The notes under the pieces are model-generated. The model saw only the letters and a program-made list of their open reading frames with translations, was not told the DNA's origin and did no database searches. The translations under genes and the position numbers were made by a program. Below, one piece after another: positions 3,001-46,303 of a stretch of 64,000 nt of DNA; positions within the stretch are counted from its first letter, which is position 1; every line of letters starts with the position of its first letter. This stretch comes from an uncultured bacterium (GTDB lineage: Bacteria; Oederibacteriota; JAAXVQ01; JAUVAV01), in the NCBI GenBank assembly GCA_963710755.1, contig CAVQBK010000003.1, positions 416,001 to 480,000 on the forward strand. Reading direction: 5' to 3'.

Positions 3001-6000
3001 CCGGTATCCTGGTGAGTACAGACACGTGGTCGATCTGGTTCGTCAATACACCGGGAAAAACGCGCCCCAGGCGGATGGCTTCTGGAAAACCTGTAAACAA
3101 TCTGTGCCCGCGTTGGGCATGGATGAAAAATATATTGAACCCCGGGATTTTAATCCGAACAACCTCCCTCTTATCGGCGCCATCACCGAACCTGTCGCGC
3201 ATTTGCACCGCCTGTGGCAGCTTGGACGGTCGGCTATTCTGGTCAATCATAACACCATGGATTTGGCGGGGGTCATAGCTGATTATTACCGCCAAACACT
3301 TGAGGAGCCCCTGTGGATCGACGGCGCTGGTATAAAGAAGGGGGAAGAAATCAAGGAGGTGGACCAATTAACCGCTGCTTACGATCAATTTAGGCCGGTG
3401 ATCATCAACCATATCCATCAAATGGATCCATACATTTTGACCCATGTCCATTATTTAATGACCTTGTCATCTCAAGCATACGGTGAGGAAGGTTTCCGGC
3501 CGGGTTTTCAAATAGTGGGTATCGATGAGGCCAACAGTGCCTACGCGCCGTCAACGGGCACAGCTGTGATACCAGTAGAAGAAATGGATGATGCGGATTT
3601 GAAAGCACTTATCCAATCAGCAGCACCTCATTTGAAAACAGCGCAGGTAAAAGATATATTAAACCTTTTCAACCGCCCGGTTTATCAACGCGAACGAAAA
3701 AAAACGACCCTCTTTCCAGGGTTAAAACTGTTGCAATTACTTGCAGAGATCGCTGACTGGCCGGAGCCAATGGCTAATTTTGTTATTGGACATAGCAACT
3801 CGATTTTGGAGTTGATCGCACAGTTGGAAAAGTTTGAAGCGCTGAAATTGAAATTTTCTTTTAAAAATTATTGGGATTATCCAGACTTGGGAGAGCAGTT
3901 ATTAAAAGGATGCCAGGATAATAGTCAGCTCTATAACTCATTACGTTCATTACAGCTTGGCCTGTCCTATTACACACTCGACCAAATCGCAGCCTATGTT
4001 GAAAAAATGCACGATGTGCCGCTGCCCTTGCTCAAGGAGTCTGGAAGTGAGCAGTCTATATTTACAGATCTTCCCGGCATTCGAGAGCAGTCAGAAAGGG
4101 CTGCCATGTTAAACGAGGTGTTCCCGACATTAAAACGGGCCAGTCGGCATCATCCTCCGCTTTATTCATTCATACTAAATATGTATTTAGAGAAAAAGAG
4201 GCCTGAAGAGCAGCAGCAAATGCTGGCGGCCATGAAGAATGAGCAATGGCTAACAACGGTAGAGTTGTTGGCTAAAGCCATCGCTCTGACCAACAAGCAG
4301 TGGAGAGACGTTTTTAATCACTATATAAACGCTTACTTGGACGGCCAAGCAACTCACGTGACAGCGGTCGTTAAAGCATTTAGCCGTCAGGCAGTGTTGA
4401 TTTTAAACAGTGGGCTGCTATCCGGACTTGACGCACAGGCATGGCAGTATACCTTTGATGCATTGCTTTACTGGCAGGCGGAACATCCGGATAATCTCAA
4501 AGTACTATTAAATATTATTGATGTTGATGAAAATGAAAACGTGGTTTTTAAGTCTTTTGATCAAAAATCAAAACAAGGATGGATTAATTTGGCACGGGAA
4601 ATCATTAACAGCCGGATCACCAGTTATGTCAACATCCTGGAGGATTGTTTATTTACCGCTGAATCGTTGAACCCTTATTATCGGCCCTTTCCACAAACCA
4701 TTTGGTCAGGTTATCTGGACTTGAGAAGCAGAATGGCGGTTGCTGAACTGTATGCTGAAATTGCGATGGCTGATGAATATTTAAAAGCGCAATGGGCAAG
4801 ACCGGCAACCGAGGAAGAAAGTGAACAAGTTGAAGAAACGGGTCAACATGAAGAAACGGGAGAAGAAACATTTTACCAGTTGGTGGGTGAACTTAACAAC
4901 CTGCTTAAAGCCATAAAAGACCAGGCCACCACAGCTTCGAGGAGAAGAAAATTAATCGAGGCCATGGCTGAGAAACAAAATATGGTCCGCAAGTTGTTTT
5001 TACATACACTGTTGAACGCTCACAATGGGGAGTACAGCCAAGCGTTGGATAAGCTCGATCCCGGCATGAAGAAGCGCGTCATGACCATCGCCATTCTCCT
5101 GGAAACATTGGATAACGGCTCAGAAGTAAGTGAATACGGTGAAGCAGGCTGGGTCCGATTAATGAACAAGCATGTGTTCAAAATAATATTCGATCATCTG
5201 ATGACGGATGAGCAGGATGCCCTGAGAAAGGGACTGGACGCGGCGCAACGGTTTTTACTGGATTTTGATAGAGCGGCCATGCAGGAAGAGCTTAAAAAAC
5301 TGGATGAACTTGAAGCGCAGTTGGGGAAAAAAGGTACAGGCTACCAGACCGATGATCTGAGCGAGCACAAAGCCAATAAAGAAACCATCGTGGCCCTGGT
5401 GGCGGCCGGCTATGATGAACGCCTGTGGACAGAAGGCATTGAGCTTAAGGTAGGTATTGATCAAGCCTTGAGCGAGGAGCAAAAAGTACAGCGCATATTA
5501 TCCATGTCCCATGAGTTGGCTGAATGGGCGATTGAACTGGGTATGACGACATTCAATGGAAAACCCTTTGATCTTTCGCGGGCCCATGAATTGATTGACC
5601 TTAAGACATGTAAAGCCTTGGTAAATGAGTTAGGAGCGCAAGTACCGGTTATAAGCGAGGATATAGACGCCCGCATCAATGACATTCTGGACCACATTTC
5701 CAATACGGAAAAGAAGGAAGCAGAGGTGGTAGCTAAGCAGCAATTTCGGGTGGTCATCAAAAAAGACTTTATTCGAGAAGCCACGGCCGGCATTGGCGTG
5801 CCCGGCTGCTTTGAGCCGAAAAGAGGATTACATCGGGAAATGCCGTTGGTTCATGCCATGGAGGGAGATGTTTTTTTTATACAAATCTTTGATGAGCGCA
5901 ATCGTCAGGTCTCCAACGCAGTGATGGTGACCACACCGGAAGGTGCACACGTCTTTGGCGGATATAATGGCACCAATTATGATTTGGAAAAGGCCTATGG

Positions 6001-37681: not shown

Positions 37682-37716
37682 AAAAAAATGGAACCCATCT
37701 GGCGGCTAGTTAAACT
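37682..37716 (+). promoter_or_regulatory. Putative ECF-sigma autoregulatory promoter
   Basis: A-tract+TGGAACC...TAGTTAAACT; similar motif at 42431-42465. Confidence 0.5.
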
Positions 37717-37766
37717 ATTTTCATGTCAAGAAAGCGCTGGATGGAACAGGGGACGATAACGATATA

Positions 37767-38375
37767 ATGGAACCTCAGGGGATGGTTTTTAGCACTATAG
37801 GGGCGGGACTAAGTGACGACCAACTGATTGATCTGGTGTTGGATGGCCAGGAGCAAGCCTTCAATCAATTGGTTCACAAGTATCAAGGACGGATTTACAA
37901 TTATGCTTTTTATTTACTTCACAGTCCCGACGAGGCGCAAGACGTGACCCAGGAAACATTTATTCGAGCCTACATGAACTTAAGCAAGTTCAGGCGGGAA
38001 GCCAGTTTAATAACCTGGCTTTACCGCATTGCGGCCAATACAGCCTATCAGGCCATGAGAAAACTGGTGAAACACCGGAGGATAAAAGAAAAAGCGGTTC
38101 AGGAGCAGCCACGCGATCCAGCCAACACGGTGACACCGGAAGACCATTTTAGGACCAGTGAAGCCCAACGCCACCTTCTGGGAGCGCTGGATAAATTAAG
38201 ACCCAAGCATAAACAGGTCTTGATTTTAAAGGAGCTGCAAGGGCTGGATGTGTTGGAAGTAGCCAAAATCTGCGGTGTGCCGGAGGGAACCATCAAATCC
38301 AGACTCAACCGTGCACGTCTGGAATTACGCCGCCAACTGGTTCGCGGTGCCGGCAAAGGAGGGGGGCAATCATGA
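37767..38375 (+). CDS. ECF-family RNA polymerase sigma factor
   Basis: AQDVTQETFIRAY, TWLYRIAAN, PEGTIKSRLNRAR. Confidence 0.95.
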   Translation: MEPQGMVFSTIGAGLSDDQLIDLVLDGQEQAFNQLVHKYQGRIYNYAFYLLHSPDEAQDVTQETFIRAYMNLSKFRREASLITWLYRIAANTAYQAMRKLVKHRRIKEKAVQEQPRDPANTVTPEDHFRTSEAQRHLLGALDKLRPKHKQVLILKELQGLDVLEVAKICGVPEGTIKSRLNRARLELRRQLVRGAGKGGGQS

Positions 38376-39391
38376 GCTGTCCCACTTACCGCCGTTTGAC
38401 AACCCATTATTACAGTATGACCGATACTCCGAAAAAGCGGCGGCAGCTGGAAGCCCACAGTCAAAGGTGTCCATCCTGCCAGCGGCTGTTGCACCAGCAG
38501 AAGGAATTGAGTCAACGCTTGACGGCTCTACCGGAGGTGCTACCTGCGAAGCCAGTGTTGCCATCCATTTGGCAGGGTATTGAGGCTAGAAAACAGGCTG
38601 CCTCTTCGAGAGCTTTTCAGCGGCTGTATGCGCCCTGGGCCTGGGGTTTGGCGGCTACTGCTGTTCTAGCCATAGTTCTCATGATGCCCCTGTTGCTGCA
38701 GCATAAAGCTCATCAGGCTCAAGGCCTCAAGGTAGCCAAACAAATCGTCGGGCCGGACATAACCAGGTCCAACGCTGATCAGCAAGCCCCCTTGTCCGTG
38801 GTGATTGCACGGCAACAGGCGGAAGTCGAACGCCATCAAAATCAACCTGCTTCTGAACGAAAATTAAATCGTCGTCAAGAGCACCAGGTGGCCATAATTC
38901 CGGACAATAATAAAAATCCAAATGTTCCTGCGCAAACCAGCCAACCGCCAAGGCAACATCTGGCCAAGAACCATGAGCAAACGCATGTGCACGACCAGAA
39001 CTCTCTAAAAAACGGCAGCATCATGCTCGATCAGTACCAAGGCAGCCGGGTGCTCAGCGCCCAACAACCAGGCTCTCGACAGGTTATGGAAACAACATCC
39101 AGCCAGGAAGGGTTTCGGTTGTTTAATAATATGCTTAATCTCAATAAGGGGGGAACCACGCGCATTACCTTGGTGCTTCAAGAAAGTCTGGAGGTCAAGG
39201 TGACCATTTACAGCCGCAGCGGCCGCGTGGTAAAACCATTGGCGGATGAACACCTTGGGGCCGGCCAGTATGAGTGGCAGTGGAACGGTACGACCAGCAG
39301 CGGCAGTCAGGCGGCCAGCGGAATTTACTTTATGGTCTGCCAACTGCAAGGCCACAAGCCGGTTACCTATAAGGTGATGGTGGTTAAATAA
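38372..39391 (+). CDS. Zinc-binding anti-sigma factor with TM helix and C-terminal FlgD-Ig/T9SS-CTD-like domain
   Basis: HSQRCPSC (HxxxCxxC); TM WAWGLAATAVLAIVLMMPLLL; tail IYSRSGRVV..L...WNG....G....SGIY; ATGA overlap with the sigma gene. Confidence 0.85.
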   Translation: MSCPTYRRLTTHYYSMTDTPKKRRQLEAHSQRCPSCQRLLHQQKELSQRLTALPEVLPAKPVLPSIWQGIEARKQAASSRAFQRLYAPWAWGLAATAVLAIVLMMPLLLQHKAHQAQGLKVAKQIVGPDITRSNADQQAPLSVVIARQQAEVERHQNQPASERKLNRRQEHQVAIIPDNNKNPNVPAQTSQPPRQHLAKNHEQTHVHDQNSLKNGSIMLDQYQGSRVLSAQQPGSRQVMETTSSQEGFRLFNNMLNLNKGGTTRITLVLQESLEVKVTIYSRSGRVVKPLADEHLGAGQYEWQWNGTTSSGSQAASGIYFMVCQLQGHKPVTYKVMVVK

Positions 39392-39407
39392 ATTGGGGAG
39401 CAGGCAC

Positions 39408-40259
39408 ATGAATGGACAGGCCAAAATAGTCTTATCGGTGATAGGGCTGATGCTTTGGGGCCACAGCGTCTTGGCGGATACGGCAACGCCCACGGCTACT
39501 GTTACTTTCACAGCAACGCCATTGGTATCAGCCACCTCAACCATAACGCTTACGGCCACACCGTCCAAAACCGTCACGCCCAGCGCTACACCTACATTTA
39601 CCCGTACGCCCAATGCTACATTGACCAGTACTATCAGCGCCACCTATACGGTCAGTCCGACATGGACGTCAACCGGCACTAGCACTCATACGCCCACCAA
39701 TACCATGACTTGTACACCTACTTCCACGTGGACCTCAACCCCCATGGATACTGTCACCTTCACACCGACCAGCACCATCAGTACCACCATGTCGGCCACC
39801 TCCACAGCCACTCCGACTGCCACTCCTTCCGCGACGGTCACGAGCAACTCATCGGCCACAGTAACTCCTACTGTGACCATGACCCCCACCGTGACCCCAA
39901 CGCCTCCATCAGGGCTGGCTACCAGTACCTCCACATCAACAGCTACAGCCACGTCGGCCGCTAGTCTCCCCACGGTGGTACCGGCTGAAATATTGGGTAA
40001 TGTGATGAATCTCAATGAACGAAAACCGGCGCGCATCCGGGTGCAACTGGATCATCCCCAAAAAGTAAGAATCGTGATTTATACCCAGCGGGGACGGATT
40101 GTTAAGGAACTTGCAGATGAGCTGGTTTCAGCAGGTACCTTTGAGGCTGTGTGGGACGGCGGTAACCGCTACGGTCAGTTGGTGCCGGCTGGGATTTATA
40201 TTGTTTATATTCAAACCGAACGCTTCCAGGAGAAAAAGCGTATAGCGATCGTGCATTAA
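39408..40259 (+). CDS. Exported Thr/Ser/Pro-rich (mucin-like) protein with C-terminal FlgD-Ig/CTD-like domain
   Basis: Signal peptide (..SVLA-D), about 165 aa of T/S/P-rich sequence, tail IYTQRGRIV.EL...WDG.N..G..V..GIY. Confidence 0.85.
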   Translation: MNGQAKIVLSVIGLMLWGHSVLADTATPTATVTFTATPLVSATSTITLTATPSKTVTPSATPTFTRTPNATLTSTISATYTVSPTWTSTGTSTHTPTNTMTCTPTSTWTSTPMDTVTFTPTSTISTTMSATSTATPTATPSATVTSNSSATVTPTVTMTPTVTPTPPSGLATSTSTSTATATSAASLPTVVPAEILGNVMNLNERKPARIRVQLDHPQKVRIVIYTQRGRIVKELADELVSAGTFEAVWDGGNRYGQLVPAGIYIVYIQTERFQEKKRIAIVH

Positions 40260-40305
40260 ATAATCCCGCCATAAACAGCGGACGATAGGATTAAGGGGAA
40301 AAGGC

Positions 40306-42351
40306 ATGAGCCTAAGGCAAGTTAGAACATCATGGCGACTCAGGCTTAAAGGTCTGATGCTGATCGGACTTTTAAGCCTGGTCACAGGCCTGCGAGCATC
40401 AACGGGCGCTGAATTTTTGCGTCCCGAAAGCTCGCCCAACGCCACCGTGATGATGGGCGGCTCGGCTCTGGAAGGGGGCTCGGCCATGCTGGCCATCAAT
40501 CCGGCCGGTTTGTTGGGCCAAGCCTATGCCTCGCTGGCGTTTACCCATTATGCCTCGTTTGTGGAAACAGCCTATGAGCAAATGGAATTTTTGTGGCCTG
40601 CCCAACCAGGATTGGCCTGGGCAGGCCGGTTGTTTTATGACAGCACCTATAACTTTGTGGCTATTAATGATTTAGGCGAACGCGTGGCCACGGTGGACAA
40701 TTACGACTTACTGCTCAACCCAGCAGTGGCCTGGCGCCTGGATCCTATGTTGGATTTGGGCGTAGGGCTTAAATTATTTCGCAGTGTTATTGCCAGCTAC
40801 AGCAGCATGGGCGCAGCTGCGGATATTGGCGTTCAGGTGCACTGGCCCGGCATGCCTCTGAGCTTGGGAGCCTCGCTGCAGAATCTTGGTATGATGACCG
40901 CCTATGATCAACAGGCCGACAGCCTGCCTTTGGCCTTGACTTTGGGCGGAGCCTGGGACGTGAATTTTGGTATCAATCAATTAATCTTGACGGCGGATCT
41001 CACCACCGGCTTTGATGAGCATCGACCGCTCACACCCATTGCAGGCATGGAATACCACTATGCGTCACTGGCCAGCGTGCGCCTGGCTTATCGGATGGAT
41101 GAGGAATTGGGTAATATCATCGTTGGGGCCGGGGTGCAATGGCGGCGGTTGGGTCTGGATTATTCCTATCAACCCTACGGCGTGTTGGGTGAAAATCACC
41201 GCTTGACCTTGTCTTATTATTTCAGGTCCCTTGCGCAAGAAAAACCACACTCAAGTGCTGAAGCGGTTTTGGCGGAAGAAACGCCGCAACTGAAAGCCCA
41301 ATCTTTGACCAAGCAAAAAGTGGCGGTTTTAACCGAGCTGCCTAGAACTTACAATGCCAAATTAACCTTCATGCCTTTGCTTAAAAGAGGTCCTTTCAAA
41401 CCCTGGAACCTTACTATTACTAATGACCAGCAGCAGACCATTCGCCAGTTTTACGGAGACGAGCGACTGCCCCAACGGATCAGCTGGGACGGCATGAATA
41501 ACCAAGGCCAGCCTCTGCTTCAATCGCAAACCTGCACCATCACCCTGGACGTTGATGGAAAAACCAGAGCCCGGCAGGAAATGCCCATCATGGCACCGGC
41601 GGTCAGGTTAATGTTACCACAGGACGTAGCGTTGCCTGTGCCGGTGATTTTTCAAATGTCCAGGCCTCTGGCCACGCGCGGTTGGACCTTACAGGTAATG
41701 ACGCCTTCAGCAGCCCCGACCGGAACAAATATTATTATGAAAGGGACGCCTTCGGCAGCCCCGACCGGAACAAATATTATTATGAAAGGGACGCCTTCGG
41801 CAGCCTCCTTTAGCGGGCAAGGGGCATGGAAGGACCCCGTGACGTGGGTTAGTACGGTGAATGATACTCACCTCAGTTATGAACTGGAATTGGTGACGGA
41901 TCAGCCCATAAAAGTGATCTTGAAGGAGCCGATCAAGACAGTAACGGCTTCAACCATTATGGCTCCGGAAGGTTATGAAGGATTGAAGATCAGCGGTGTC
42001 CTTTTTGATTTTAACCAAGCCGCGTTAAAGCCCGAAATGGCGGACAAGTTGCAAGCCGTGAGTCAATTGCTGGCCTATTATCCACAGGACCTGTATGTCA
42101 TATGTGAAGGCCATGCTGATGAAGTGGGGGACCAGGCTTATAACCAAACTTTGTCCGAAAAACGGGCCCAGATGGTGGCGGAAAAATTGGTGCGTGACAG
42201 CGGTGTCAGCCAGGACCGGGTAAGCATTAAAGGCTACGGCCAAGCCCGGCCTGAAAACAGCCTGGGCACGCCGGAAGGCATGGCCCGCAATCGGCGTGTG
42301 GACATCAAGGTGTTTTTCCCTGTAAATCTTGCCAAAAAAACCGGCAAATAA
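40306..42351 (+). CDS. PorV/PorQ-like beta-barrel fused to a FlgD-like segment and C-terminal OmpA domain
   Basis: GAEFLR...MGG...INPAGL start, alternating barrel strands ending DYSY.PYG.LG..HR.TLSY.F; WDGMNNQG; VLFDF..A.L, EGHAD, N..LS..RA, NRRVDI. Confidence 0.85.
   Translation: MSLRQVRTSWRLRLKGLMLIGLLSLVTGLRASTGAEFLRPESSPNATVMMGGSALEGGSAMLAINPAGLLGQAYASLAFTHYASFVETAYEQMEFLWPAQPGLAWAGRLFYDSTYNFVAINDLGERVATVDNYDLLLNPAVAWRLDPMLDLGVGLKLFRSVIASYSSMGAAADIGVQVHWPGMPLSLGASLQNLGMMTAYDQQADSLPLALTLGGAWDVNFGINQLILTADLTTGFDEHRPLTPIAGMEYHYASLASVRLAYRMDEELGNIIVGAGVQWRRLGLDYSYQPYGVLGENHRLTLSYYFRSLAQEKPHSSAEAVLAEETPQLKAQSLTKQKVAVLTELPRTYNAKLTFMPLLKRGPFKPWNLTITNDQQQTIRQFYGDERLPQRISWDGMNNQGQPLLQSQTCTITLDVDGKTRARQEMPIMAPAVRLMLPQDVALPVPVIFQMSRPLATRGWTLQVMTPSAAPTGTNIIMKGTPSAAPTGTNIIMKGTPSAASFSGQGAWKDPVTWVSTVNDTHLSYELELVTDQPIKVILKEPIKTVTASTIMAPEGYEGLKISGVLFDFNQAALKPEMADKLQAVSQLLAYYPQDLYVICEGHADEVGDQAYNQTLSEKRAQMVAEKLVRDSGVSQDRVSIKGYGQARPENSLGTPEGMARNRRVDIKVFFPVNLAKKTGK
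41701..41805 (+). repeat. In-frame 45-bp tandem repeat (2.3 copies)
   Basis: ACGCCTTC(A/G)GCAGCCCCGACCGGAACAAATATTATTATGAAAGGG at 41701 and 41746, partial at 41791. Confidence 0.95.
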
Positions 42352-42380
42352 GACTTTAAACCGGTCGAGCCGTTACGCCT

Positions 42381-42410
42381 TGTAGGGAACGGTCGCGACC
42401 GGTCCCCACA
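42381..42410. repeat. GTAG-type REP palindrome
   Basis: TGTAGGGAACGGTCGCGACCGGTCCCCACA, imperfect stem. Confidence 0.65.
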
Positions 42411-42430
42411 ATATCACCCTTCTTTTTTTC

Positions 42431-42465
42431 AAAAAAAAATGGAACCTCCTAGTCAATAGTTGACT
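42431..42465 (+). promoter_or_regulatory. Putative ECF-sigma promoter for the second module
   Basis: A-tract+TGGAACC...TAGTTGACT. Confidence 0.5.
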
Positions 42466-42509
42466 CTCTTCTTTGTTATCAATAACCACCAGTTAAAGGA
42501 GAGGGATCA

Positions 42510-43802
42510 ATGAGGACTTTTAAAAGAATTGCGTTTTTGCTTTTACTAACACTGGCCTGTCTGCACCAGGCCGGACTCGCCAACACGGCAGTACCCACTT
42601 TCTCGCCAACGGTCACATTCACAGCAACTGGGACGCCCACGGTGACGGTGACACCAATGAGTAGCACGCCGACAGCAGTCTTCACGGCCACGATTACGCC
42701 CACTCGGACGAGCACAGCCACACCGGTTGGAACCGTGCCTGCCGGTTCAACGAAAACCGCTACAGCCACAGCGACGCATACGGCCACAGTGGCGGTGACA
42801 CCAATGAGTAGCACGCCGACAGCAGTCTTCACGGCCACGATTACGCCCACTCGGACGAGTACCGCCACACCGGTTGGAACCGTGCCTGCCGGTTCAACGA
42901 AAACCGCTACAGCCACAGCGACGCATACGGCCACAGTGGCGGTGACACCAATGAGTAGCACGCCGACAGCAGTCTTCACGGCAACGATTACGCCCACTCG
43001 GACGAGCACAGCCACGCCGGTTGGAACCGTGCCTGCCGGTTCAACGAAAACCGCTACAGCCACAGCGACGCATACGGCCACAGTGGCGGTGACACCAATG
43101 AGTAGCACGCCGACCGCGGTGTTCACGGCCACGATTACGCCCACTCGGACGAGCACAGCCACGCCGGTTGGAACCGTGCCTGCCGGGTCAACGAAGACCG
43201 CTACGGCCACGTCGACCCGGACCCCGATAGCGACCTCCACAGCGGCTGGTACAGCGGTTGCCACCCATACGCCCACTAAAACACCCACGCAGTCACCAGG
43301 CACACCGGCTCTAACCGCCACTCGTACCGCTACGGCCACGATGACGTTTACTGTGACCAGCACGCCCCAAGGTGAGGTCACCACTGCGCCCACTGCCACC
43401 GGCACAGCAACCCCTATGGCCACCTCCACACCGGTCAACACGGCCACGCCCAGCGGCATGGTCTCCACCTCCACGGTAACCGTCACCACCACGGCCATTG
43501 CCACCGCTTCAGCGCCAAAAGTGGAAGCCAAGGTTTACGGCAGCGTGGTGAATCCAGCCAAAACCGAGAGCGCCCACATTCAGGTGCACCTGGATAAGCC
43601 CCAGAAAGTTCAGGTTATCATTTACAATCAAAGAGGACAGGTGGTCAGGACTTTGGTCGACGCAGTGAAAGACGCCGGAACCTTTGATGCCGTATGGCAG
43701 GGCGTGAACCGCCATGGCCAGGTCGTGTCCTCCGGAATTTACGTGGTGTATATCAAGACAGATACTTTCCAAGCCAAAAAACGCATCGTGGTTATTCGAT
43801 AG
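42510..43802 (+). CDS. Exported Thr-rich tandem-repeat protein with C-terminal FlgD-Ig/CTD-like domain
   Basis: Signal peptide (..AGLA-N); 49-aa repeats; tail clearly homologous to that of 39408..40259. Confidence 0.88.
42648..43211 (+). repeat. 147-bp (49-aa) tandem repeat, about 3.8 near-identical copies
   Basis: CCAATGAGTAGCACG recurs at 42654, 42801, 42948 and 43095 (period 147). Confidence 0.95.
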
Positions 43803-43811
43803 GAGGACGAG

Positions 43812-44747
43812 ATGGGCATGCTAGTTACTATACATATGAAAAAGGTTTGTAAAACCGGGGTTATGATCGCCATGCTGGCGGGGTTGGCCTCGGTCCTAGG
43901 GACACCTTTGTTGGCCCTAACCGGGGCGGATTTCCTGCGCCTGGAAAGCTCGCCCAATGCAGCAGTCATGATGGGTGGAGCGGCTTTATCCGGCACGCCG
44001 GCTATGTTGGCGGTTAATCCGGCAAGCTTGTTGGGCCAACAGGAACCATCGATCTCCTTTTCCCATTTTGCGTCCTTTGCTCTAACCGGGTATGAACAGT
44101 TGGAAGGGGTGATACCTCTCGGTTCCCATCTGGCTGTAGGCGGACGACTATTTTATGACAGTGCCTATGGTCTGGCGGATATTGATCTTGAGGGTAATAA
44201 TCAGGGTACCATTGCCAATTATGATTTGCTGGTCAATCCGGCCATGGCGGTTAAAATCAACGAGTTGCTCAACCTGGGTGTGGGGCTCAAAGGATTCCAA
44301 AGCGTGCTCTTTGATTATTCCAGTGTGGGTGCTGCCCTGGATATGGGGGTGCATTTTCAGGTGCCTGGTCTGGGGCTGAGCCTGGGTGCGTCCATGCAGA
44401 ACCTCGGTTTTATGACCGCCTACAACACCGTGCAGGAACAACTGCCTCTGAGCTTTGATCTGGGCGCGGCCTATCAATGGCTGAGCGGTCCGCATCAATT
44501 CACTGTGCTTGGTGATGTCACCACCGTGGTGGAGGAATATCAAACCCTGACCCCCATACTGGGGGCAGTCTATCGCTATGGCGGTTTGGCCTCTGTGCGC
44601 GTGGCCTACCGCTTGGACCAGGAGTTGGGCAATTTAATGGTCGGCGCCGGTTTAACCTGGCAGGCTATCGGCGTGGCTTATGCCTACCAGCCCTTGGGTG
44701 CCTTGGGGGACAATCACCGCTTCAGTGTTTCCTACCTTTTCAAATAG
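43812..44747 (+). CDS. PorV/PorQ-like outer-membrane beta-barrel
   Basis: Paralog of the N-half of 40306..42351 (GADFLRLESSPNAAVMMGG, VNPASLLG, RLFYDS, NHRFSVSYLFK). Confidence 0.85.
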   Translation: MGMLVTIHMKKVCKTGVMIAMLAGLASVLGTPLLALTGADFLRLESSPNAAVMMGGAALSGTPAMLAVNPASLLGQQEPSISFSHFASFALTGYEQLEGVIPLGSHLAVGGRLFYDSAYGLADIDLEGNNQGTIANYDLLVNPAMAVKINELLNLGVGLKGFQSVLFDYSSVGAALDMGVHFQVPGLGLSLGASMQNLGFMTAYNTVQEQLPLSFDLGAAYQWLSGPHQFTVLGDVTTVVEEYQTLTPILGAVYRYGGLASVRVAYRLDQELGNLMVGAGLTWQAIGVAYAYQPLGALGDNHRFSVSYLFK

Positions 44748-44824: not shown

Positions 44825-45862
44825 TCAGCGCTGGGACAAGCCGGAGAGCGCCACGCCCAGGAGGCGGACTTTTTTTTGGCCGACCAAGGTTTTGGGAAGC
44901 AGTTGTTCCACGGCCTCCCAAATTGCATGGGCCTGGTAAACCGGCTTAGCCAGAGTGGCGGCCCTGGTGATCTGGATAAAATCATAATACTTGACCTTTA
45001 AGGTCACTGTATTGCCCTGACGCTGCGCCTGTTCCAGCACTTGGGCGACGTGATGGCAAAGCCGTTTCAATTCCTGATGGATCACTGCTGGTTCGAGCAG
45101 GTCCTTTTCAAAGGTTTTTTCCCGTCCCATAGACTTTCGGATGCGATCAGATTCTACCGGTCGCTCATCTATTCCGCGCGCAAAAGTATAATAGCGCCTG
45201 CCAGCCTTACCGAAATAATGAATAAGTTCCTCCATGTTTTTTTTGCGCAAATCCGCGCCGGTCTTGATGCCCAAAGCCAACATCTTTTTTTCCGTGACTT
45301 TGCCCACGCCGAAAAATTTACGAATTGGCAGGCCGGCGATAAAAGCCTGTGCTTTTTCCGGAGGAATCACGGTCAGACCCCGCGGCTTGCGGTAATCGGA
45401 CGCCACCTTGGCCAGGAATTTGTTGGTCGACACCCCGGCCGAGGCCGTAAGTTTGGTTTCCTGTTCAATCCTCTGCAGCACCTCGCGTGCCAGCACGGTA
45501 GCTGACGTTATATGTTTTTTATTATCGGTCACATCCAAATAAGCTTCATCCAAAGACAGCGGTTCCACTATATCGGTATACTCCTGGAAAATCGCCCTCA
45601 ATTGATGAGATACCTGTTTGTAAACAGCCATACGGGGCAGCACAAAGATGCCTTGAGGGCAGCGTTGCCGGGCTTCTTTGGAGGGCATGGCGGAATGGAT
45701 TCCAAACTTGCGGGCTTCGTAGGAACAGGTGGCCACTACGCCCCGCTTTTCAGGATCACCGCCTACAATCACCGGCTTACCTTGCCACTGAGGATGGTCC
45801 CGCTGCTCTACAGAGGCATAAAAAGCATCCATGTCAATATGAATAATCTTACGACCAGTCAT
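44825..45862 (-). CDS. dinB: DNA polymerase IV
   Basis: IIHIDMDAFYASVEQRD, SYEARKFG, SLDEAYLD, KFLAKVASD; start reassigned to ATG 45862. Confidence 0.96.
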   Translation of the reverse strand: MTGRKIIHIDMDAFYASVEQRDHPQWQGKPVIVGGDPEKRGVVATCSYEARKFGIHSAMPSKEARQRCPQGIFVLPRMAVYKQVSHQLRAIFQEYTDIVEPLSLDEAYLDVTDNKKHITSATVLAREVLQRIEQETKLTASAGVSTNKFLAKVASDYRKPRGLTVIPPEKAQAFIAGLPIRKFFGVGKVTEKKMLALGIKTGADLRKKNMEELIHYFGKAGRRYYTFARGIDERPVESDRIRKSMGREKTFEKDLLEPAVIHQELKRLCHHVAQVLEQAQRQGNTVTLKVKYYDFIQITRAATLAKPVYQAHAIWEAVEQLLPKTLVGQKKVRLLGVALSGLSQR

Positions 45863-46105
45863 GGTTTTATTGTAATCCACCAGCCACCCCAACTCTAGAG
45901 AAATCATGGAATCCTTTCCATAGGGGTTTTTGGTAATGTGTGGTTTTGATTCCCTAGAGGCGAGGATAGGTATTGTGTCAGATGTAAAAAATAGAATAAA
46001 ACACTTGATAAATAAAGATATCAGCAGATCTATAATCCGAACTAAAAATTGGCCTAATAGTTGCTTAAGTAAAAGTTGCCAACAGCTATTCCACAAGGAG
46101 GACCA

Positions 46106-46303
46106 ATGAATCATCGCCGTTACAAATACCTAATCTGGAACTCCAATTGGTACAAACAGAATGTGACCCAAACCAAAGCGCAATGGGACAAGGCCGTGGT
46201 GACCCAGAGTGATGCTCCGGCCAAGGAATTGGATGTTTCCAAAAAGAGAAAACCCCTGCTGGAGGATTTTTTCCCCTGGTGGAAACAGGATCATAAAAAC
46301 TAA
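46106..46303 (+). CDS. Small hypothetical protein (65 aa)
   Basis: Strong AAGGAGG RBS before ATG 46106; upstream of flgF. Confidence 0.55.
   Translation: MNHRRYKYLIWNSNWYKQNVTQTKAQWDKAVVTQSDAPAKELDVSKKRKPLLEDFFPWWKQDHKN

Follow-up and report, generated by a model that had tools for sequence, protein, structure and literature searches.

The locus examined here raises the question of why a bacterium outside the Bacteroidota encodes threonine-rich proteins that are each followed by an outer-membrane barrel, and by which route such proteins would reach the cell surface. The window is a 64,000-nt stretch (G000:C3:416001-480000) from the genome of an uncultured, flagellated soil bacterium (G000, 3.44 Mb, 98% complete). 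Within it, six open reading frames (ORFs) lie in the same direction on the plus strand at positions 37767-44747. They encode an extracytoplasmic function (ECF) sigma factor, an anti-sigma factor, and two modules of a passenger with a Thr/Ser/Pro-rich stalk and a C-terminal tail followed by a PorV-like barrel, one of which is fused to OmpA. A sequence-only reading had claimed exactly this gene set, and all six ORFs were recovered with their domains. The locus is interpreted here as two surface-display modules of a route resembling the T9SS (type IX secretion system), in each of which a type-A-like tail has a dedicated PorV-family anchor, and a probability of roughly 0.6 is assigned to this interpretation. 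The sequence-only reading had proposed a stand-alone, undescribed secretion system, and this part had to be given up. The genome carries a SprA/Sov-type translocon (TIGR04189, 253.1 bits, cut-off 200) on a 2138-aa ORF (G000:C1:68813-75229) together with about 63 tail proteins and 42 barrels, so that the locus represents a single example of a display route resembling the T9SS. Envelope-stress control and a glycosylated brush, which the same reading had also put forward, are putative.

Threonine accounts for 37 and 36% of the stalk residues of passengers 1 and 2, while Thr, Ser and Pro together account for 63 and 55%, respectively, compared with 16% in the long ORFs of the genome. No catalytic domain was detected in either passenger by Pfam at E<=1, and the tail was the sole domain found, in agreement with the proposal that the passengers consist of stalk and tail. 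The assignment of the tail to the FlgD-Ig or T9SS type A pattern stood in part. FlgD_ig exceeded its cut-off of 27 bits in both passengers (33.8 and 38.7 bits, respectively), while the type A sorting domain model TIGR04183 (cut-off 23) did so only in passenger 2 with 29.8 bits, the tails of passenger 1 and the anti-sigma factor reaching 18.7 and 16.4 bits. PF18962 scored 18.4 bits in passenger 2, below its cut-off of 27, and CHU_C, the type B signal, remained under the Pfam cut-off in all three tail-bearing proteins of the window. The tail domain ends no more than 8 residues before the C-terminus and was modelled in passenger 2 as a 7-strand sandwich (predicted local distance difference test, pLDDT, 95.8), which corresponds to the terminal beta-sandwich of ~70-90 aa in a type A sorting domain. 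Conserved YNxxGxxV, W, SGVY and KKxxVxK/R motifs run through the tail alignment, with PNP in many paralogues, and we take these to be type A sorting-domain motifs. Among solved structures, the tail profile matched best to the C-terminal domain (CTD) of PorU (5.6e-8), the immunoglobulin (Ig)-like domain of FlgD (8.3e-8) and the PorZ CTD (1.3e-4), followed by the substrate CTDs in 8glk and 8glj.

Tandem repeats occur in both modules, as a 147-bp unit in 3.9 copies with 96% identity in the stalk of passenger 2 (nt 42633-43210) and as a 45-bp unit in 2.4 copies in barrel 1 (nt 41700-41805). A contig of a congener (L023) shows runs of N, read as X in its ORFs, at ~3040-3190 and ~4180-4290, where the repeats of the window lie. 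The repeat regions of passenger 2 and barrel 1 are thus length-variable or hard to assemble.

The barrels proved PorV-like rather than FadL-like, as had been proposed. Their profile matched PorV among solved structures at 2.1e-38, with TodX next at 6.9e-8. The AlphaFold model of barrel 2 comprised 14 strands (pLDDT 86.7, predicted template modelling score 0.81), and Foldseek placed the PorV chains 8gl6_F and 6h3i_F on top (TMq 0.74 and 0.70), with FadL and TodX at ~0.5-0.6. Barrel 2 was accordingly modelled as a 14-stranded barrel of the FadL superfamily with PorV as its closest member, and the conserved N-terminal segment of the PorV/PorQ family was present. Scores for the family model PorV_fam (NF033709, cut-off 90) were borderline, with 88.4 bits for barrel 1 (90.2 in the genome scan) and 87.6 bits for barrel 2 (86.3), and barrel 2 additionally reached 74.7 bits with the PorQ model. 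Elsewhere in the genome, 26 matches exceeded the NF033709 cut-off alone and 3 more frames did so when neighbouring pieces were added. PorQ-model scores exceeded PorV-model scores among the barrels of this genome. The OmpA domain of barrel 1 scored 72 bits over residues 566-663 by Pfam; FlgD_ig-like domains occurred on 11 and OmpA on 7 of the 42 barrels. A word-indexed homologue search with barrel 2 returned 7 proteins, one of them close (71% identity).

Two side observations concern the same family. Three barrels of 413-418 aa (G000:C6:132964-134214, C6:156915-158171 and C3:134154-135395) carry a single FlgD_ig-like domain at the C-terminus, on the side expected to be periplasmic. In a protein atlas, the nearest clusters were labelled PorV/PorQ, UPF0164 and DUF5723 and came from Krumholzibacteriota, Cloacimonadota, Calditrichota and others, which are to be taken as leads only.

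An interface between tail and barrel was predicted for one cognate pair, barrel 2 and the 96-aa tail of passenger 2, modelled from our own alignments of both partners. The interface score ipSAE was 0.90 in three of three runs, while the best of three controls reached 0.01; contact agreement was at least 96% and partner pLDDT at least 89. Of 80 solved complexes, 58 attained the mark applied to ipSAE, as did 2 of 110 mismatched pairs. Contacts on the barrel were located on the loops after strands 1, 3, 5, 7, 9, 11 and 13 (L1-L7) and on the initial residues of the mature chain, which together form the extracellular face, and contacts on the tail corresponded to its conserved motifs. The folded tail sits atop the loops and outside the lumen in the model. 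Binding on extracellular loops is the known mode of PorV with substrate CTDs, as described in Lauber 2024 (PMC10994853), and it is predicted in silico for this PorV-family barrel as well. The sequence-only reading had named a FadL-type barrel without a tail interface and an unconserved adjacency as findings that would speak against it, and neither was encountered.

Pairing of tails and barrels was surveyed in the source genome with hidden Markov models (HMMs) built from the window's own copies. The barrel HMM identified 42 barrel ORFs, with 43 matches to the PorV_fam model, and the tail HMM identified 75 ORFs, namely 63 non-barrel proteins with a terminal tail, the 11 barrels with internal or C-terminal copies, and one other. 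A tail gene on the same strand was located within 300 bp of 26 of the 42 barrels, upstream in 22 and downstream in 4 cases, and stop and start codons overlapped in at least 10 tail-barrel pairs. The next upstream neighbour on the same strand was a tail gene for 24 of the 42 barrels. The permutation mean, obtained on a crude set of 2660 genes, was 0.94, and none of 10,000 permutations reached 24. The adjacency of tails and barrels is not a product of chance. Over the 26 pairs, barrel and tail distances gave a Mantel r of 0.18, which was reached by 25 of 5000 permutations, and nearest neighbours agreed in 9 of 26. The two modules of the window are each other's nearest relatives with 55% identity between the barrels and 52% between the tails, and therefore represent a tandem duplication.

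The cargo of this pairing is diverse. A Pfam scan of 18 paired cargo proteins identified 2 subtilases, a beta-helix protein, Kelch and FG-GAP/SBBP propellers, a CarboxypepD_reg repeat protein and several tail-only proteins. In 28 of the 63 tail proteins, the tail is preceded by a 60-aa linker rich in Thr, Ser and Pro, and 9 resemble the passengers of the window in being stalk-only. Separately, three paired cargo tails passed the Pfam cut-off of CHU_C instead of FlgD_ig or type A, with 32.9, 28.4 and 28.7 bits (L088, L094 and L100; G000:C1:183958-186135, C4:72852-74528 and C3:1290487-1291440), and the division into type A and type B may fit this lineage imperfectly.

PorV_fam matches occurred in all 31 sampled genomes of the phylum, with 8-54 per genome. 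Twenty barrel loci of the phylum's other families were taken from a top-scoring and hence non-random list, and a tail gene was found directly upstream in 10 and downstream in 1; the tail HMM was derived from the source genome only and may miss diverged tails. The congener contig L023 repeats the entire locus of the window, including the downstream dinB and flgFGA genes. A search with the sigma factor in the 31 genomes gave 29 non-self loci, 12 of which carry an ORF of 318-348 aa with a terminal tail directly after the sigma gene. Eleven of these 12 belong to the 14 genomes of the order and one to a different family (G018), and two further sigma loci are interrupted by contig ends. When ten loci were extended, 6 contained sigma factor, tail-bearing anti-sigma factor, passenger and a barrel of 657-695 aa in this order. 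One of the others ends with its contig after the passenger, one (G013) has the barrel without a passenger, and one (G003) contains nothing recognisable. Orthologous passengers range from 294 to 702 aa with the tail as their only Pfam domain, and one orthologous barrel carries FlgD_ig (31.8 bits) and OmpA. The operon of sigma factor, tail-bearing anti-sigma factor, passenger and barrel with OmpA is conserved through the order, and the arrangement of a cargo with its own barrel, which had been deduced from a single stretch of DNA, is both real and conserved. In the distant family represented by G018 (L086:2-7879), sigma factor and tail-bearing anti-sigma factor are followed by an ORF of more than 2626 aa with 44% Thr, Ser and Pro and no Pfam domain.

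The organism was described from sequence as flagellated and unlike typical Bacteroidota, which agrees with the flgF, flgG and flgA genes encoded in the window. The nearest named relatives of its FlgG belong to candidate division FCPU426 (64% identity) and Ca. Firestonebacteria (61%).

A genome search for SprA, PorK-N and PorU had been suggested together with the original proposal and gave a divided result, with SprA present, GldK, GldL, GldM and GldN not found, and the C25 peptidases below the PorU cut-off. SprA-like ORFs of 1776-2252 aa were matched in 28 of the 31 phylum genomes, of which 7 exceed the cut-off in the genome scan. Peptidase_C25 occurs together with fn3 and a tail in two proteins of the source genome (Pfam 131.5 and 143.3 bits). 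The best score for the PorP/SprF model TIGR03519 in this genome was 19.4 bits at a cut-off of 90.55. As an observation on the surroundings of the SprA-like gene (L044; G000:C1:61001-87000), it is divergent from a PMT_2-family glycosyltransferase gene and lptF/lptG, and it is followed by five paralogous ORFs of ~670-740 aa, two of which were scanned and both identified as TonB-dependent receptors. The PMT_2-family glycosyltransferase could bear on glycosylation of the stalks or of lipopolysaccharide.

Several results weigh against reading the locus as part of a T9SS-like display route. At the level of the tails, TIGR04183 stays under its cut-off in passenger 1 and the anti-sigma factor, and the fold search returned generic Ig-like structures, in a list where PorZ ranked 5th and PorU 35th. 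At the level of the barrels, barrel 2 falls just below the NF033709 family cut-off, and none of the barrels in the genome reaches equivalog level, with best scores of 73.7 bits for PorV (NF033710, cut-off 250) and 108 bits for PorQ (NF033711, cut-off 220). PorV-CTD complexes have already been solved (8gl6), so the docking result shows likeness and may reflect memorised structures. Sixteen of the 42 barrels have no paired tail gene, and about 37 of the 63 tail proteins have no paired barrel. The SprA-like ORF, compared with solved structures by phmmer, matched only fn3/titin and no SprA, and the two C25 peptidases scored 70.3 and 57.8 bits with the PorU model NF033707 at a cut-off of 420, too low to count as a PorU sortase. 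GldK, GldL, GldM and GldN had no match at E<=0.01 in the 98%-complete genome; since no control genome gave a match for the GldL, GldM and GldN models, these blanks are to be read as not found and not as absent. Across the 31 phylum genomes, GldM was found in none and GldK in none over its cut-off of 350, with weak GldK matches of at most 88.6 bits in 10 of the 31, mainly to the C-terminal half of the model. Hence the motor that in Bacteroidota powers the release of carrier and cargo was not found. With SprA in 28 of the 31 genomes and neither GldM nor an above-cut-off GldK, the lineage may possess a T9SS-like route that dispenses with the known motor and ring, as far as a search without a positive control can indicate.

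The closest known counterpart is the T9SS attachment complex of Porphyromonas gingivalis, in which PorU-PorV and PorZ-PorQ likewise hold a retained type A CTD on a PorV/PorQ-family barrel at the cell surface. In contrast, the genome analysed here encodes 42 barrels and 26 adjacent pairs in 3.4 Mb with no barrel at equivalog cut-offs, and the cargo comprises stalks, enzymes and adhesins instead of parts of the machinery. The porZ and porQ genes are presumably non-adjacent in P. gingivalis. The SprA-PorV translocon with substrate CTD from Flavobacterium johnsoniae (6h3i, 8gl6) resembles the present system in the best folds for barrel 2, the loop contacts and the SprA homologue, and differs in that GldKLMN was not found here and that SprA is too distant for a phmmer match to the solved protein. 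Release of the carrier-substrate complex is the step that requires energy, according to PMC10994853.

A gene arrangement with private barrels is known from type B cargo. According to Paillat 2025 (PMC12618676), type A CTDs in Bacteroidota are all recognised by a single PorV, while only type B cargo have private PorP/SprF-like shuttles; in F. johnsoniae and P. gingivalis, the gene of such a cargo adjoins that of its own barrel, which serves as a specific anchor or shuttle. The pairs found here involve another barrel family, as the low TIGR03519 score indicates, and tails that are type-A/FlgD_ig-like. The OmpA-like link to peptidoglycan has a precedent in PorE-PorP-PG1035, as described in PMC9143113; there PorE is separate from PorP, whereas OmpA is fused to barrel 1 as a one-chain counterpart.

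Reviews place the T9SS in the Fibrobacteres-Chlorobi-Bacteroidetes (FCB) superphylum (PMC11205867). Searches of open-access literature and preprints returned no report of private PorV/PorQ-family barrels for type A tails, of a T9SS in FCPU426 or Firestonebacteria, or of an anti-sigma factor with a T9SS tail. The elements that set the locus apart are the private PorV/PorQ-family barrels for type-A/FlgD_ig-like tails, their occurrence in a non-Bacteroidota lineage, the lack of a recognisable motor among the matches found, and the tail on the anti-sigma factor; the T9SS-like route itself is known. T9SS models derive from Bacteroidota, with one PorV for all type A cargo and a GldLM motor paying for release. 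This lineage differs with its dozens of private PorV-family barrels, several of them fused to wall anchors, and its SprA homologue, the motor not having been found. If the interpretation is right, carrier specificity would be both old and general as a design principle in type IX-like export, the energising of release without GldLM would become a testable question, and the 96-aa tail with the 311-aa barrel would provide a compact set for binding studies.

For the display route favoured here, the following sequence of events is envisaged. Sec would take each passenger to the periplasm, from where it would cross the outer membrane through the SprA/Sov-type translocon of the genome. The Thr-rich stalk would be retained on its own barrel, with the tail docked on the outer loops as in the model. 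As the passengers consist only of a length-variable Thr/Ser/Pro-rich stalk and a tail, they would form a fibrillar coat. Barrel 1 would be tethered to peptidoglycan by its fused Ig-like and OmpA domains, and the second module is a tandem duplicate of the first.

Transcription of the locus would be driven by the ECF sigma factor. This protein was identified by Sigma70_r2 and Sigma70_r4_2 (Pfam, 62.5 and 49.8 bits, respectively) and by TIGR02937 (NCBIfam, 111.2 bits, cut-off 42.9). Inspection of the anti-sigma sequence shows an H29xxxC33xxC36 motif and a single hydrophobic stretch spanning about residues 89-109 (nt 38636-38698), and a 147-aa linker leads to a FlgD_ig/T9SS-type tail at residues 256-339 (nt 39137-39388). 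This tail scored 40.5 bits with FlgD_ig, above the Pfam cut-off of 27, and is 38% identical to the tail of passenger 1 (E 1.9e-18); the antisigma model NF052375 gave 34.9 bits, below its cut-off of 100. With sigma regions 2 and 4 and an overlapping downstream membrane protein that contains HxxxCxxC, the pair corresponds to an ECF sigma factor with an anti-sigma factor of the zinc-binding (ZAS) type.

Two similar promoter-like boxes accompany these genes. The sequence AAAAAAATGGAACC is present 81 nt before the start codon of the sigma factor and 73 nt before that of passenger 2. The congener retains box 1 and the downstream AAACTATTTTCATG (L048), as well as ATGGAACCTC and TTGACTCTCTTCTT of box 2 (L023), and the spacer diverges in both cases. 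Conservation of box and downstream block around a varying spacer is the pattern expected of a promoter. A scan of sigma-70 promoters and terminators showed no excess over shuffles, the ECF promoter expression GGAAC...CGT had zero matches, and the passenger 2 site was the sole match to the post-hoc pattern TGGAACC-N10-16-RTTRAC. The argument for promoters therefore depends on the box common to both sites and on the footprint in the congener. The boxes are suggestive of candidate auto-regulation of the sigma factor and control of the second module, with promoters that are predicted and not mapped. At G000:C3:64194 and G000:C3:1057353, AAATGGAACC is followed by a similar downstream ATTAAC block, and one of these two sites lies 49 nt before a 198-aa ORF located between tail and barrel loci. 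Both sites may be additional targets of this sigma factor. Neither the shared box nor the tail on the anti-sigma factor had been noticed in the sequence-only reading.

The membrane-bound anti-sigma factor would hold the sigma factor and expose a homologous tail at its extracytoplasmic end. Owing to this tail, release of the sigma factor is probably coupled to a recogniser of tails, either the barrel or the translocon, and this is the least supported step of the mechanism. The tail of the anti-sigma factor is periplasmic by topology and the cargo tails dock outside, which counts against the interpretation at this point. A more specific version, offered tentatively and considered doubtful, treats the tail of the anti-sigma factor as a substrate mimic. 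SprA and a PorV-like barrel would engage or compete for it and free the sigma factor according to export capacity or barrel occupancy. This would amount to a FlgM-like checkpoint built from type IX parts, without detectable GldKLMN, that governs a length-variable Thr-rich coat with private PorV-family anchors. The tail also suggests that recognition of tails is wired directly to gene expression; the only known connection of this kind, PorA-PorXY-SigP, is indirect.

That P. gingivalis pathway offers the nearest precedent, as PorA, which bears a CTD, functions upstream of an ECF sigma factor in control of genes related to secretion (PMC7712824). In the present locus, by contrast, a membrane anti-sigma factor with a zinc motif carries the tail as a direct fusion, with no two-component system, and the regulated genes apparently encode cargo and barrels instead of machinery. 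The same precedent can be cited for an alternative in which the locus serves trans-envelope signalling. The state of the barrel, given by tail occupancy or by contact of OmpA with the wall, would be relayed through the periplasmic Ig-like domain to the tail of the anti-sigma factor, and the stalks would act as ligands or reporters.

Such a relay would resemble FecA-FecR-FecI, in which an outer-membrane barrel, a membrane anti-sigma factor with a periplasmic C-terminal domain and an ECF sigma factor are encoded together. In contrast to that system, the barrel here is PorV-like and not a TonB-dependent transducer, and the sensor domain of the anti-sigma factor is a T9SS-type tail. The relay would account for the long barrel with Ig-like and OmpA domains always being kept in the operon (657-695 aa in the 6 of 10 extended loci, and in G013 even without a passenger), for tails or barrels being linked to just one of the source genome's 8 ECF sigma loci, and for the conservation of the anti-sigma tail in 12 loci. 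It is nevertheless judged unlikely. The anti-sigma tail resembles the cargo tails, as its identity to that of passenger 1 indicates, and not the internal Ig-like domain of the barrel, with which BLAST gave no significant match. Moreover, the six other OmpA-fused barrels have no sigma factor nearby, and the duplicated passenger-barrel module and repeat expansion resemble structural surface genes.

The one-to-one pairing, often with translational coupling through the overlap of stop and start codons, would also be expected if the barrel were itself the translocator or assembly factor of the preceding protein, independent of SprA and comparable to a split autotransporter. Self-contained export of this kind would suit the failure to find the GldKLMN motor, and P. 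gingivalis PorA is reported to reach the surface without T9SS machinery in PMC7712824. SprA is conserved through most of the phylum, however, and more than half of the tail proteins (about 37 of 63) have no adjacent barrel to serve them. With 14 strands, the barrel has a small PorV/FadL-type fold that includes the N-terminal segment conserved in its family, and the model puts the folded tail over the loops and not in the lumen. This alternative is regarded as quite unlikely.

A further alternative concerns the side of the membrane on which the tail acts. The FlgD_ig tail could be merely an Ig-like interaction domain, and the Thr-rich proteins could be periplasmic envelope spacers bound to the inner side of the barrel or to Ig-like domains. 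All three tail-bearing proteins score higher with FlgD_ig than with the T9SS models, and the fold of the tail is generic. In addition, 11 of the 42 barrels carry a domain of this kind on their periplasmic C-terminal extension, and the tail of the anti-sigma factor must be periplasmic. Against this, the predicted contacts are exclusively on extracellular loops, a SprA translocon is present, and the other paired cargo (subtilases, beta-helix, Kelch/FG-GAP propellers and CarboxypepD_reg) is typical of secreted T9SS cargo, so that a periplasmic complex appears very unlikely. That the barrels are FadL-type uptake channels for hydrophobic compounds with unrelated neighbours is disfavoured and scarcely credible. 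FadL, TodX and TbuX come next in the fold and sequence comparisons, but PorV is far ahead in both (TMq ~0.6 for the next-best folds), and the adjacency stands at 25 times chance level and is conserved in the phylum.

Table 1. Positions of the genes and promoter-like boxes of the locus within the window.
Feature	Position	Strand	Description
Promoter-like box 1	37682..37730	+	A-tract then ATGGAACC; start codon of sigma factor 81 nt downstream
ECF sigma factor, 202 aa	37767..38375	+	Matches to Sigma70_r2, Sigma70_r4_2 and TIGR02937
Anti-sigma factor, 339 aa	38372..39391	+	4-nt overlap with sigma factor; zinc motif; FlgD_ig at C-terminus
Passenger 1, 288 aa	39393..40259	+	Hydrophobic N-terminus; Thr-rich stalk 29-205; tail 206-288
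Barrel 1, 681 aa	40306..42351	+	PorV/PorQ-family barrel 17-306; Ig-like domain 354-407; OmpA peptidoglycan-binding domain 556-681
Promoter-like box 2	42437..42480	+	A-tract then ATGGAACC; start codon of passenger 2 73 nt downstream
Passenger 2, 430 aa	42510..43802	+	Hydrophobic N-terminus; Thr-rich stalk 25-345; tail 346-430
Barrel 2, 311 aa	43812..44747	+	PorV/PorQ-family 14-stranded barrel, no extension

The positions of the features are given in Table 1, and the two modules are separated by a gap of 158 bp between barrel 1 and passenger 2. Downstream of the locus, a DinB-type polymerase is encoded on the minus strand (window 44825-46114). Its longest ORF begins ~75 codons ahead of the region in common with the 353-aa copy of the congener, and its true start is therefore probably internal.

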